Positions 942 through 21,671 of a DNA stretch of 24,757 nucleotides are shown here, one piece after another. Below the pieces are notes generated by a model. The model was given only the letters and a program-made list of their open reading frames with translations. It made no database searches and was not told the DNA's origin. Position 1 is the first letter of the stretch; every line of letters begins with the position of its first letter. The position numbers and the translations under genes were made by a program. Source of the stretch: an uncultured Candidatus Bathyarchaeia archaeon (GTDB lineage: Archaea > Thermoproteota > Bathyarchaeia > 40CM-2-53-6 > CAVXDP01); NCBI GenBank assembly GCA_964354325.1, contig CAYGZB010000006.1, forward strand, positions 1 to 24,757. Reading direction: 5' to 3'.

Positions 942-1720
942 GTGACTCGGCGTCCTTGTCCTCCAGCTTGGTCAATCGTCGACACAGCTTGGTCGATTGC
1001 TTCTTTGAGGACTTTCTCGGCCTCGGAATAGTCCTTTGCAGTGACCTCTATTTGATATTTTGGAGCTCCCACTGCGTAAACCTTGATCGTGCTACTTCGA
1101 GGTTTCTTCGCCTTCTTTGCGTTTAGAAGACCCTTCTTGATGTGCTCAATTCCATCTGGCTTGGAGCATGTAAGCTCCAAAACAGCCTTGCAGATGGCTT
1201 TCTCAGTCTTTATTTTCGTTCTGGCTACTTCGGTGATGACTTTCGCCCAGTTCAGATCAATTCCAATTTTTGCGAAGGTCTCTTCGCCTTCCTCGACTGC
1301 TTCCTGTAGCGCGTCGTAAAGTGATCCGTACTTGTCGAGAATCAGGTTGTTGAGGTTTTCGGCTGAACCTGCATCTAATGAAAGTTTTTCAATTGCGCTT
1401 TTCAGAATCGAATCTGCTTTCTTGTATTTCTTCCATTCGAGCAGTGTTTCCGCTTTTTCTCTTCCAGTGACTCTTCTCAGAGAGAGGTCGACTTGCCCTT
1501 TTTCTGTGTTTATTCTGAGAACCTTGAGAACTAGTTTCTGACCTTCTCTCACGTGGTTCCTTATGTTACGTACCCATGTCGTCGATATCTCTGAAATGTG
1601 GATTAGCCCTTCCTTGTTCTTGTACTCGTCGAGTTTTACATAGGCTCCGTAGTCTGTAACTTTGGTCACAGAAGCTACTACAAGGTCGCCCACGTCAGGA
1701 AATTCTGTTTGCGAAGAGAA
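938..1720 (-). CDS. eif2a: Translation initiation factor 2 subunit alpha (start uncertain: TTC 1720 or GTG 1693)
   Basis: S1 domain (YGAYVKLDEY..KEGLIHISEIS..WVRNIR, VDLSLRRV) and C-terminal GAPKY. The frame is open to the TAG at 1733-1735; the only canonical start is GTG 1693. Confidence 0.95.
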   Translation of the reverse strand, partial: FSSQTEFPDVGDLVVASVTKVTDYGAYVKLDEYKNKEGLIHISEISTTWVRNIRNHVREGQKLVLKVLRINTEKGQVDLSLRRVTGREKAETLLEWKKYKKADSILKSAIEKLSLDAGSAENLNNLILDKYGSLYDALQEAVEEGEETFAKIGIDLNWAKVITEVARTKIKTEKAICKAVLELTCSKPDGIEHIKKGLLNAKKAKKPRSSTIKVYAVGAPKYQIEVTAKDYSEAEKVLKEAIDQAVSTIDQAGGQGRRVT

Positions 1721-1732
1721 CTGTGGAGCCTC

Positions 1733-1927
1733 CTATCCAAGAATCTGAAGTGACTCTCCTTTGATCTCGGCTTTTCCTCCACGAGGAATAGCCAGAACCT
1801 CATCGCAGACGTTGCATCTCACTTCAAGAGAGACTCTGTCAAAAACTATTTGTTCATTCCCACACTTGCCGCACTTCACTTTCATGAATAGGCTTTCAGC
1901 CTTTGGTATCAATTCATCACGTTTCAT
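1733..1927 (-). CDS. rps27e: 30S ribosomal protein eS27 (S27e)
   Basis: F.KVKC.KC.NEQIVF...C.VC...LA.P.GGKA zinc ribbon. Confidence 0.96.
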   Translation of the reverse strand: MKRDELIPKAESLFMKVKCGKCGNEQIVFDRVSLEVRCNVCDEVLAIPRGGKAEIKGESLQILG

Positions 1928-19121: not shown

Positions 19122-19517
19122 GTGAGCAAACCAGTTGATGTGGGAAGCCTCAAGATCGGTCACTACGTTGTAGTAGATGGAGAGCCCTGCAAGATAGTCG
19201 AGTACGAGAAATCAAAACCTGGAAAACATGGTGCAGCCAAGGCTAGGATAGTGGCTATTTCAGTTTTGACTGGCCAAAAAAAGAACATCATAAGCCCGGT
19301 AGATGGAAAGGTTGAGGTTCCAATGATTGACAAGAAGACCGCTCAAGTCATTTCTATATCGGGAAATGTGCTGCAATTGATGGATATGGAAAGCTATCAG
19401 ACGTTCGAAACGGATATGCCTGAAGACGAAGAACTGAGAGGAAAACTAGCATCGGGGCTCGAAGTCGAGTACTGGAACATGCTTGGAAAGAACAAAATAG
19501 TCAGAGTTAAAGGTTAG
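19122..19517 (+). CDS. eif5a: Translation factor aIF5A
   Basis: SKPGKHGAAK hypusine loop; GTG start. Confidence 0.97.
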   Translation: MSKPVDVGSLKIGHYVVVDGEPCKIVEYEKSKPGKHGAAKARIVAISVLTGQKKNIISPVDGKVEVPMIDKKTAQVISISGNVLQLMDMESYQTFETDMPEDEELRGKLASGLEVEYWNMLGKNKIVRVKG

Positions 19518-19559: not shown

Positions 19560-20498
19560 ATGCGTCGAATCCAGCCGATCAGGCTTCGGCGAAGCATGAG
19601 CACAGACGATCTTGCTCAAGAGATGGGCAGAGCAGGCGTTCTGGGAGCCGGAAGATTCTCCACGGCGGTGGACATATGCTCAAGAATGTTTTCCGACAAA
19701 CGGTACACAAATATTCTGTCTATTGCAGGACCCCTTGTTCCAGCAGGGCTCAGACAGATAATTCGAGACCTGATTAATGACCGCCTCTTGCATGCGATAG
19801 TGACCACTGGAGCGAATATGACACATGACCTGATAGAATCAATGGGCTACAGACATGTAATTGGAAAAGCATCAGCGAACGATTCGACACTCCAGAAGAA
19901 GAAGATTGGCAGAATATACGACATCTACATCAGTCAAAAAGCCTACCAGAAACTCGAAAAAGAGACTTACAAGATTCTTGCAGACATAGATGATCGCAAA
20001 CGAAAGAATATTTCGACATATGAATTATTTTGGGAATTCGGAAAACGCATCCGAGATGAGAATTCAATAATCAAGACTGCGGAAAAAAGAAAAGCCCCGA
20101 TATTTTGTCCAGGAATCTATGATTCAATGTTTGGAATGGATCTATGGACGTTCAGTCAACTAAACACATTGATGATTAATCCATTCTTGGATTTTAGCAA
20201 GCTCGTTGACATGTCATACGACGCGGACAGGGTCGGGGTAATAATCTTGGGTGGAGGAGTTCCGAAACACTATGTTCTTGCCGGAAATATCCTTCGCGGA
20301 GGCGTTGACGCCGCCATTCAAATCACACTCGACAGACCTGAAGCTGGTGGCATCAGTGGCGCTCCGCTTGAGGAAGCCATCAGCTGGGGAAAGATAGGTA
20401 ACAAGAAAGATCTTGCCACCGTAATCGGCGATGCAACCATGGTATTTCCAATGTTGGTTCTGGCAGCTTTACAGAGAAAACCAATAAACATGATCTAG
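19560..20498 (+). CDS. dys: Deoxyhypusine synthase
   Basis: TTGAN.THD, GGGVPKH and SGAP.EEAISWGK (catalytic Lys) motifs; adjacent to aIF5A. Confidence 0.94.
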   Translation: MRRIQPIRLRRSMSTDDLAQEMGRAGVLGAGRFSTAVDICSRMFSDKRYTNILSIAGPLVPAGLRQIIRDLINDRLLHAIVTTGANMTHDLIESMGYRHVIGKASANDSTLQKKKIGRIYDIYISQKAYQKLEKETYKILADIDDRKRKNISTYELFWEFGKRIRDENSIIKTAEKRKAPIFCPGIYDSMFGMDLWTFSQLNTLMINPFLDFSKLVDMSYDADRVGVIILGGGVPKHYVLAGNILRGGVDAAIQITLDRPEAGGISGAPLEEAISWGKIGNKKDLATVIGDATMVFPMLVLAALQRKPINMI

Positions 20499-20582
20499 GT
20501 AATTGTTCCAGCCAATCGTCTGTAGTTATTCTGACAAAACTGCAAGTGATGCAATATCCTAGACGACTATTCGTCTCATAAT

Positions 20583-21671
20583 ATACGGATTTCAATTGGG
20601 GCTGGAAGAACCCTACTGCTTTCTGGGCCAGCTTCGATCAAGCTAATTGATGGAGAGGCAAGCATCTTCGCTTCTCCGCTAGAAAGGGGATACAAGATTG
20701 TTGTCGGCAAAGGAAAACAACTTCCGATAGAAACATCGAAAAACTCCACCATCCACTGTTCCCTTTCCAGTTCTGCTGAATCTCTGGAGATCGCTGGAAG
20801 CACGATCCCTGAGTCTTGGATGGAAACAGCGCAGACTATCGTCGAATGTGGACAAGGAAGGACCGTCGTCATTGGCAACGTGGACACTGGCAAAACCGGT
20901 TTCTGCACCGTGCTAGCTAACATCGCCTTGAATTCGGGAGTCAAGGTTGGAATTCTTGATGCTGACCTTGGTCAGTCTGACATTGGACCACCTGGCAGCA
21001 TTGGATTCGGGCGAGCAGGCAACCACATCTTTGGCCTATCAGATGTCACTCAGGATCGTCTGTATTTTGTAGGATACATTAGTCCAGCGCTAGTAGTCAA
21101 CAAAGCACTGTCTGGAATGAGGAAACTGCTGGAACGGACAAAGAGTGTTGATATTCTCATAATCAACACAGATGGGTGGGTTCTGGGTGACCAGGCAATT
21201 GTCTACAAGAAGAGCCTGATCGACCTAATCGAACCGAATTTTGTTGTGGGAATAGGGGAAAAAAGCGAAACAAACTCTATCCTTGAACTTGTCGAGCAAA
21301 CATCATTTCAAATACAGTCCCCGAAGATGGTTCTCAGACGCACAAGAGAGCAGAGGAAAGAACTGAGGGAATTGAGGTACAGGAAATACCTGAACAGATC
21401 GGTCGTGGTGAAGGTTGATACTCTCAGATCTAAGGTTTCATTTAGCAATGGTCAGGTGTTGAGACCTGAGCATCTTGATTTATCGTTGACAAGGTCTCTT
21501 CTGGGCATGCTTGATGATGATGGATGGCTGTTGGGAATAGGGGTTCTTTCAGGCATGAACCGGAAAGACGAGAGCCTTAGGATTACAACACCTGTAACAT
21601 CCTTTTCTGAAATCGAAATTGGAGCCGTAAAACTGGATGAAAATGGGACCGAGTTATCATATTTGGAATAG
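20583..21671 (+). CDS. Clp1/Nol9-family polynucleotide 5'-hydroxyl kinase, probable ATA start
   Basis: P-loop GNVDTGKT, DADLGQSDIGPPG and INTDGW motifs. The frame is open from 20550 and encodes GRTLLLSGPAS...GSTIPESW before ATG 20820. Confidence 0.9.
   Translation: MRISIGAGRTLLLSGPASIKLIDGEASIFASPLERGYKIVVGKGKQLPIETSKNSTIHCSLSSSAESLEIAGSTIPESWMETAQTIVECGQGRTVVIGNVDTGKTGFCTVLANIALNSGVKVGILDADLGQSDIGPPGSIGFGRAGNHIFGLSDVTQDRLYFVGYISPALVVNKALSGMRKLLERTKSVDILIINTDGWVLGDQAIVYKKSLIDLIEPNFVVGIGEKSETNSILELVEQTSFQIQSPKMVLRRTREQRKELRELRYRKYLNRSVVVKVDTLRSKVSFSNGQVLRPEHLDLSLTRSLLGMLDDDGWLLGIGVLSGMNRKDESLRITTPVTSFSEIEIGAVKLDENGTELSYLE

Follow-up and report, generated by a model that had tools for sequence, protein, structure and literature searches.

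A Clp1-type RNA kinase gene without a canonical start at its head in a Bathyarchaeia archaeon, and a Shine-Dalgarno-positioned ATC as its candidate start codon

The stretch of DNA analysed here (the window) comprises 24,757 nucleotides from an uncultured Candidatus Bathyarchaeia archaeon (GenBank assembly GCA_964354325.1, contig CAYGZB010000006.1, positions 1 to 24,757 of the forward strand) and carries, on the + strand, a gene for a Clp1-type polynucleotide 5'-hydroxyl kinase. The reading frame of this gene is closed upstream by a TGA at 20547-20549 and is open from 20550 to a TAA at 21669-21671. An earlier note on this sequence had placed the first ATG, GTG or TTG of the frame at 20820, and we found the same. 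The start-free stretch ahead of that ATG spans 90 codons; only 3 of 725 long open reading frames (ORFs) in the 987-kb metagenome-assembled genome (MAG) contain a longer one. The first canonical start, ATG 20820-20822 (+), is the choice of gene callers and gives a 283-aa product. Upstream of it lie a Shine-Dalgarno-like AGTGAT (20545-20550, +), an ATG at 20549 that opens a 10-codon ORF in another frame, an in-frame ATC (20556-20558, +) and an in-frame ATA (20583-20585, +), the last of which the earlier note had proposed as the start. On the evidence set out below we lean modestly toward Shine-Dalgarno-directed initiation at the ATC, which would produce a 371-aa kinase from a coding sequence at 20556-21671 (+; 371 aa plus stop).

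The protein matches Pfam CLP1_P (E about 1.6e-34 to 1.7e-34; 119.7 bits against a cut-off of 26.6) over profile positions 1-187 of 188, corresponding to protein residues 107-280; NCBIfam returned no match for it. The P-loop kinase domain (20874-21395, +) contains all of the expected motifs: Walker A (GxxxxGK[ST]) as GNVDTGKT, the DxDxGQ motif of the Walker B region within DADLGQSD, and the lid arginines R262, R267 and R271. These arginines are invariant over 58 aligned sequences, as are G107, G112, K113, D135, D137, G139 and Q140. An AlphaFold model (58 homologues; mean predicted local distance difference test score, pLDDT, 94.7; predicted template modelling score, pTM, 0.92) consists of an all-beta N-domain, a P-loop domain and a C-terminal beta-domain, and Foldseek aligned it at full length with human and C. 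elegans Clp1 (8hmy_E, 4ohy and 4oi0) at TM scores of 0.79-0.81 over about 400 alignment columns. The domain order and the three motifs are those of the Clp1/Grc3/Nol9 polynucleotide 5'-hydroxyl kinases, a family whose archaeal members include the Pyrococcus horikoshii enzyme. Unlike them, the window gene adjoins genes for aIF5A and deoxyhypusine synthase and has no canonical start, and identity to the solved structures is only 15-18%. Judged by profile, motifs and modelled fold, the gene is a complete three-domain Clp1-type kinase with predicted ATP-dependent 5'-OH RNA/DNA kinase activity, the identity that had been assigned to it from its letters.

The N-terminal all-beta domain (20577-20795, +; residues 8-80 of 371) lies wholly upstream of the first canonical start. 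Its strands (E8-E80) are modelled at pLDDT 95-97. The sequence alignment with human CLP1 (8hmy_E) begins at residue 26 of the N-domain, and Pfam CLP1_N matches weakly (E = 0.05). Clp1 homologues were found in 38 of 41 related genomes, most of them aligning from query residue 1-6, so the upstream stretch aligns with its homologues. The N-domain is 47-57% identical to those of genus relatives, and the ratio of N-domain identity to identity over the rest of the protein is 0.89 on the window lineage versus 0.91 among relatives with normal starts; hence, the N-domain shows no faster decay than the remainder of the protein. By alignment and model, the upstream 79-90 codons are coding sequence for a genuine Clp1 N-terminal beta-domain, and the earlier claim that this domain is out of reach of any canonical start stands.

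We scanned Joint Genome Institute (JGI) metagenomes and recovered four independent contigs of the same species (L021-L024). L021-L023 show 95-99% protein identity to the window; L024 shows 78% in its best segment, owing to indels. All four share the frame TGA-TGC-AAT-ATC without a canonical start. In L024, 21 single-base indels are scattered through three genes in 2.3 kb, most of them at homopolymer runs, and we therefore regard the frameshift in its N-domain as a read error. The closest protein cluster (P0003) is 97% identical and has 40 members; among the 15 members listed, every full-length one was called at 283 aa, i.e., from ATG 20820. Since the four independent contigs share the arrangement and the cluster calls agree with it, the start-less gene is due neither to chance nor to assembly error. 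The MAG is fragmented (126 contigs), which might favor a sequencing or assembly error hiding a true ATG at 20583 or an indel joining ATG 20549 to the gene, but we find such an error scarcely credible given three clean contigs, and the error-prone L024, with the same frame arrangement and given the 283-aa length of the listed full-length cluster members.

The 3' end of the 16S rRNA was sought in the MAG assembly and not found, and the ribosome-binding signal was therefore derived statistically, from 438 ORFs whose starts are unambiguous. Upstream of them, the pentamers with the strongest enrichment were GGTGA (27 versus 2) and GTGAT (22 versus 4), and the positional consensus was GGTGAT at -11 to -6. 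From the T of GTGAT to the start codon, the most frequent gap was 5 nt (24 of 84 motif-bearing starts); 190 of the 438 true starts had no Shine-Dalgarno motif. At the head of the Clp1 frame, AGTGAT matches the consensus at five of six positions, is invariant in five strains, and includes the very TGA that closes the frame. The ATC at 20556 follows GTGAT by exactly 5 nt, is in frame, and is the same in all five strains. With a position weight matrix (PWM) score of 3.65, it ranks within the top 5.7% when set against true starts and within the top 0.17-0.4% against control positions, and it scores best of all in-frame codons between 20550 and 20830. The other candidates score far lower: -1.0 for ATA 20583 (the control median), -1.7 for ATG 20820, -2.2 for ATT 20595, -2.4 for ATT 20589, and -2.7 for ATG 20549. 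Apart from ATC 20556, no near-cognate codon that lies after the closing stop and ahead of the domain's first strand is shared by all the strains. The earlier remark that no Shine-Dalgarno motif is visible thus applies to ATA 20583 and fails for ATC 20556. Two differences among strains upstream of 20583 are synonymous in the Clp1 frame (GAC/GAT at 20562 and AAT/AAC at 20580) and fit translation of that frame upstream of the ATA; in the frame of the small ORF, the change at 20562 turns Arg into a stop. Just downstream of the ATC there is a hairpin, AGACGA-CUAU-UCGUCU (20561-20578), which the C/T polymorphism at 20562 leaves paired (C-G to U-G).

Initiation might instead occur only at ATG 20820, yielding a 283-aa protein of kinase and C-domain and leaving the 90 upstream codons as a recently orphaned, untranslated remnant of the N-domain. 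We consider this unlikely. No other canonical start is available, and ATG 20820 is the choice of every gene caller, but it lacks Shine-Dalgarno context and encodes an ancestral internal Met (in SWMETA) common to several full-length homologues. Within the species, dN/dS of the N-domain is 0.24-1.0 and, for most pairs, higher than in the remainder of the gene, values that rest on few substitutions; with only ~19 variable codons, the absence of stops in the N-domain has little statistical power. A homologue in the same order (G033:C3:989530-990583, minus strand) is split at the same domain boundary into two adjacent ORFs (query residues 5-98 and 99-361), perhaps through a frameshift, as a pseudogene, or as a truly split gene. 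Against truncation stand the relative conservation of the N-domain, equal to that in relatives with normal starts, its confident modelling within a compact fold, the intact frame in all strain contigs of good quality, and a well-placed Shine-Dalgarno motif exactly at the head of the open frame.

In-frame near-cognate codons further downstream (ATT/ATC 20589, ATT 20595, and ATT 20697 inside the domain) are very unlikely to serve as the start in place of ATC 20556. Every strain has the codons at 20589 and 20595, but their scores are the poor ones given above, and starting at either would remove part of the first strand (E8-14). ATT 20697, with a Shine-Dalgarno-like GGGGAT and a PWM score of 3.48, would as the start cost the protein half of its beta-domain; it could be a minor site of internal initiation.

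ATA 20583, 79 codons ahead of ATG 20820, had been put forward as the start, possibly through termination-reinitiation after the 10-codon ORF (MQYPRRLFVS, 20549-20581, +). In the window strain the layout is as it was described, with the TAA of this ORF (20579-20581) one base before the ATA. The comparison among strains speaks differently. Codon 20583 is AGA (Arg) in all four sister strains, which likewise have no canonical start, and in the sisters the small ORF reads ATG CAA TAT CCT AGA TGA, ending after five codons at TGA 20564-20566; the stop beside the ATA is thus unique to the window strain. Both features trace to a strain-specific cluster of substitutions (20562-20591, +), which lengthened the small ORF, gave it its TAA stop, and produced the ATA, here an Arg-to-Ile change. 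Seven substitutions within 20562-20591 are unique to the window strain; relative to L021 there are nine differences in 20562-20598 versus one in the 849 nt downstream of ATG 20820, and local dS is about 0.69 at the patch versus 0.005 in that downstream stretch. From these counts, it resembles either a short patch introduced by recombination or clustered mutation at the gene start.

The position of the ATA is nonetheless a meaningful one in the wider class. In most of 79 Bathyarchaeia species, those in which a GKTLL motif was found, an ATG, GTG or TTG precedes the T of GKTLL by nine codons, which corresponds to 20583 by homology, so the pattern M-x6-G(K/R)TLL given in the earlier note holds class-wide. 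A canonical start is present in every one of these 79 species. In same-genus homologues the 20583 position is occupied by Arg or Lys (e.g., RRRRISIKAG and ERKQIIVKAG), and the proteins begin at an ATG 13-16 residues further upstream. The genus has shifted the Clp1 start upstream, and the species of the window has then lost its canonical start altogether. A start at ATA 20583 in the window strain is quite unlikely on this evidence. It would put a near-cognate codon back at the class-wide position, one base after a stop that the same patch created, and many true starts of this genome do without a Shine-Dalgarno motif. Against it, the ATG of the small ORF has no such motif of its own and overlaps the one serving the ATC, the context of the ATA does not rise above the control median, and the length and stop of the small ORF are not conserved, which leaves termination-reinitiation without the features it would need. 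Because four sister strains facing the same problem have AGA, the ATA cannot be the solution of the species; it could at most be a second, strain-specific start. The ATA and the 10-codon ORF are by-products of the substitution patch and of an ATG embedded in GTGATG.

The same small ORF raises the question of a programmed +1 frameshift, in which ribosomes would start at ATG 20549 and move into the Clp1 frame a few codons later. All strains keep ATG 20549, the TGA of the sisters (AGA TGA C) recalls prfB or antizyme sites, and same-genus proteins have N-terminal extensions of similar length. As in upstream-ORF reinitiation and in prfB and antizyme frameshifting, a short ORF overlaps or abuts the start region; unlike in those systems, both the stop position (CGA in the window strain versus TGA in the sisters) and the restart codon vary among strains, the small ORF lacks an initiation signal, its ATG having the poorest context of all candidates, and there is no re-pairing slippery codon that we could recognise in ATG CAA TAT CCT AGA. 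A stimulatory RNA structure, for frameshifting or shunting, is not indicated by the fold of 20499-20640 (z = -1.05, not significant). In a 2021 review, -1 is the only frameshift reported as demonstrated in Archaea (PMC8211752). We place this mechanism a shade below the downstream near-cognate codons in probability. We also considered read-through from the deoxyhypusine synthase gene, which is in the same frame as Clp1, and rejected it: four in-frame stops lie between the two (TAG, TAG, TGA and TGA), and in L022 and L024 the two genes are put out of frame by a 1-nt indel.

Other genes of this genome also have near-cognate candidates. For uL16, AGGTGA is followed by a 5-nt aligned gap and ACG, and the Pfam L16 domain begins 23 residues before the first Met. 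A screen of the MAG for Shine-Dalgarno-positioned non-canonical codons at the heads of long ORFs, combined with Pfam, gave four more. Chorismate synthase (aroC; L025, C2:17551-18660, minus strand) has ACG, with Pfam matching from residue 10 and the first canonical start at residue 23; malate/lactate dehydrogenase (mdh; L026, C98:3060-3971, plus strand) has CTG, with Pfam from residue 2 and the first canonical start at residue 21; and CDC48 (L028, C28:3562-5706, minus strand) has CTG, with Pfam from residue 11 and the first canonical start at residue 17. A homocysteine-synthesis protein (HcyBio; L027, C7:15285-16433, minus strand) with ACG is marginal, Pfam matching from residue 25 and the first canonical start being residue 28. 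The Shine-Dalgarno gap is 5 nt in each case and 4 nt in the marginal one. The homologous position of aroC is ACG in three genus genomes, that of the window included, GTG in two other members of the genus, and in other families TTG, CTG or ATG; at mdh, the CTG of the window genome stands where four relatives have TTG. Near-cognates occupy 8 of 32 Shine-Dalgarno-positioned sites versus a background of 12.7% (p = 0.04), an enrichment that is supportive and not independent because the screen selected on Shine-Dalgarno motifs.

Two further sites came up alongside these genes. A Cbf5/TruB-like ORF (L030, C5:25250-26065, plus strand) opens right after a stop, with GGAGG followed by AGG at its head; its Pfam TruB_N match does not begin until profile position 17, and it could have an odd start or belong to a split or intron-containing cbf5. 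In the window itself, the start region of aIF2-alpha (1691-1741, minus strand) has AGGAGG, ~4 aligned nt, and then TTC, and an in-frame GTG 10 codons downstream of the TTC (PDVGDL) could be its canonical start.

Archaeal start codons are commonly regarded as limited to AUG, GUG and UUG and as policed by aIF1. The genes above raise a broader idea, on which we would bet slightly below even: that start-codon stringency may be relaxed in this Bathyarchaeia order, the Shine-Dalgarno motif defining the site and ACG, CTG and ATC working as starts that interchange with ATG, GTG and TTG between sister species. aroC (ACG/GTG/CTG/TTG/ATG), mdh (CTG/TTG), uL16 (ACG) and Clp1 (ATC) may be examples. Loss of aIF1 was rejected as a cause, the gene (SUI1) being present in the genome. 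In Haloferax, ribosome profiling found ~30% of putative alternative start sites to be near-cognate, and the authors set them aside (PMC7261190). In E. coli, initiation from AUC, AUA, AUU and CUG reaches about 0.1-3% of that from AUG, and the products begin with Met (bioRxiv 10.1101/063800). We found no literature on start-codon usage in Bathyarchaeia.

Several observations weigh against initiation at ATC 20556, or against relaxed stringency as a whole. First, all of 20526-20561 is invariant in the five strains, so the conservation of the ATC carries no weight, and the within-species dN/dS leaves purifying selection on the N-domain unproven at that timescale. Second, the ATC has no positional canonical counterpart in relatives: the class-wide ATG aligns with 20583 and not with 20556, and the same-genus ATG starts lie at a different offset without a visible Shine-Dalgarno motif. 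This makes the assignment for Clp1 less direct than those for uL16, aroC and mdh, where the near-cognate sits at the place of a canonical start in relatives, and Clp1 alone would count as one further, less direct instance of near-cognate starts in the genome. Third, only 14 of 42 GTGAT-N5 sites that head long open frames have a canonical start. Fourth, the near-cognate cases other than uL16 were found via the Shine-Dalgarno search and so carry an ascertainment bias. Finally, the aIF1 retained by this genome discriminates against non-canonical starts, and non-canonical translation in Archaea was, as of 2021, demonstrated only at elongation and termination (both PMC8211752).

With these points in mind, we envisage initiation at ATC 20556 as follows. 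Clp1 would probably be translated as the third cistron of an aIF5A-deoxyhypusine synthase-Clp1 transcript. The 3' end of 16S rRNA would pair with (A)GTGAT at 20545-20550 and so place the small ribosomal subunit, setting the P site 5 nt downstream, on the ATC, which the initiator tRNA would read with one mismatch, presumably inserting Met. The resulting low-output start would suit a low-abundance RNA-repair or RNA-processing enzyme.

The nearest precedents are bacterial genes with conserved weak AUU, AUC, AUA or CUG starts, among them infC and pcnB with AUU. As in those genes, a near-cognate one base from AUG is positioned by a Shine-Dalgarno motif and low-level Met initiation would be expected; ATC is already listed as a possible start in translation table 11 of the National Center for Biotechnology Information (NCBI). 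Unlike them, the archaeon has aIF1/aIF1A/aIF2 instead of IF3, no autoregulatory logic is evident for Clp1, and the ATC state is confined to one species, sister species using ATG. Within the same genome, uL16 at ACG resembles Clp1 in its Shine-Dalgarno motif, its 5-nt gap, the loss of the canonical start, and truncation by gene callers.

The public Clp1 calls that we saw are 283-aa fragments missing a whole structural domain, and the same annotation error will affect other genes of the lineage (aroC, mdh, cdc48 and uL16). If relaxed stringency is real, a measurable fraction of the proteins of an abundant sediment lineage have N-termini that gene callers cut short or overlook, and this would be, as far as we found, the first natural system-wide near-cognate initiation in Archaea. 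With Shine-Dalgarno-anchored ACG, CTG and ATC starts fixed in housekeeping genes, it would also offer a natural system for studying initiation fidelity on a eukaryote-like apparatus.

Immediately upstream of Clp1, on the same strand, are genes for aIF5A (19122-19517) and deoxyhypusine synthase (19560-20498, +; Pfam DS, 7e-96). The spacers between the three genes are 42 and 57 nt, and no TATA-like box was seen in the 57-nt spacer ahead of Clp1; the three likely form one transcription unit. In another family (G019), Clp1 directly follows what looks by eye like the C-terminus of aIF5A, which, together with the cluster in the window, suggests that the RNA kinase has a conserved linkage to the hypusination module. 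The spacer between deoxyhypusine synthase and Clp1 contains a TTCCAGC(C/T)-like motif (20506-20513), which recurs upstream of Clp1 in several Bathyarchaeia families (L003, L002, L005 and L007-L013), for example as TTCCAGCTGGCT and gttccagctttgcc, and which resembles neither a TATA box nor a Shine-Dalgarno motif.

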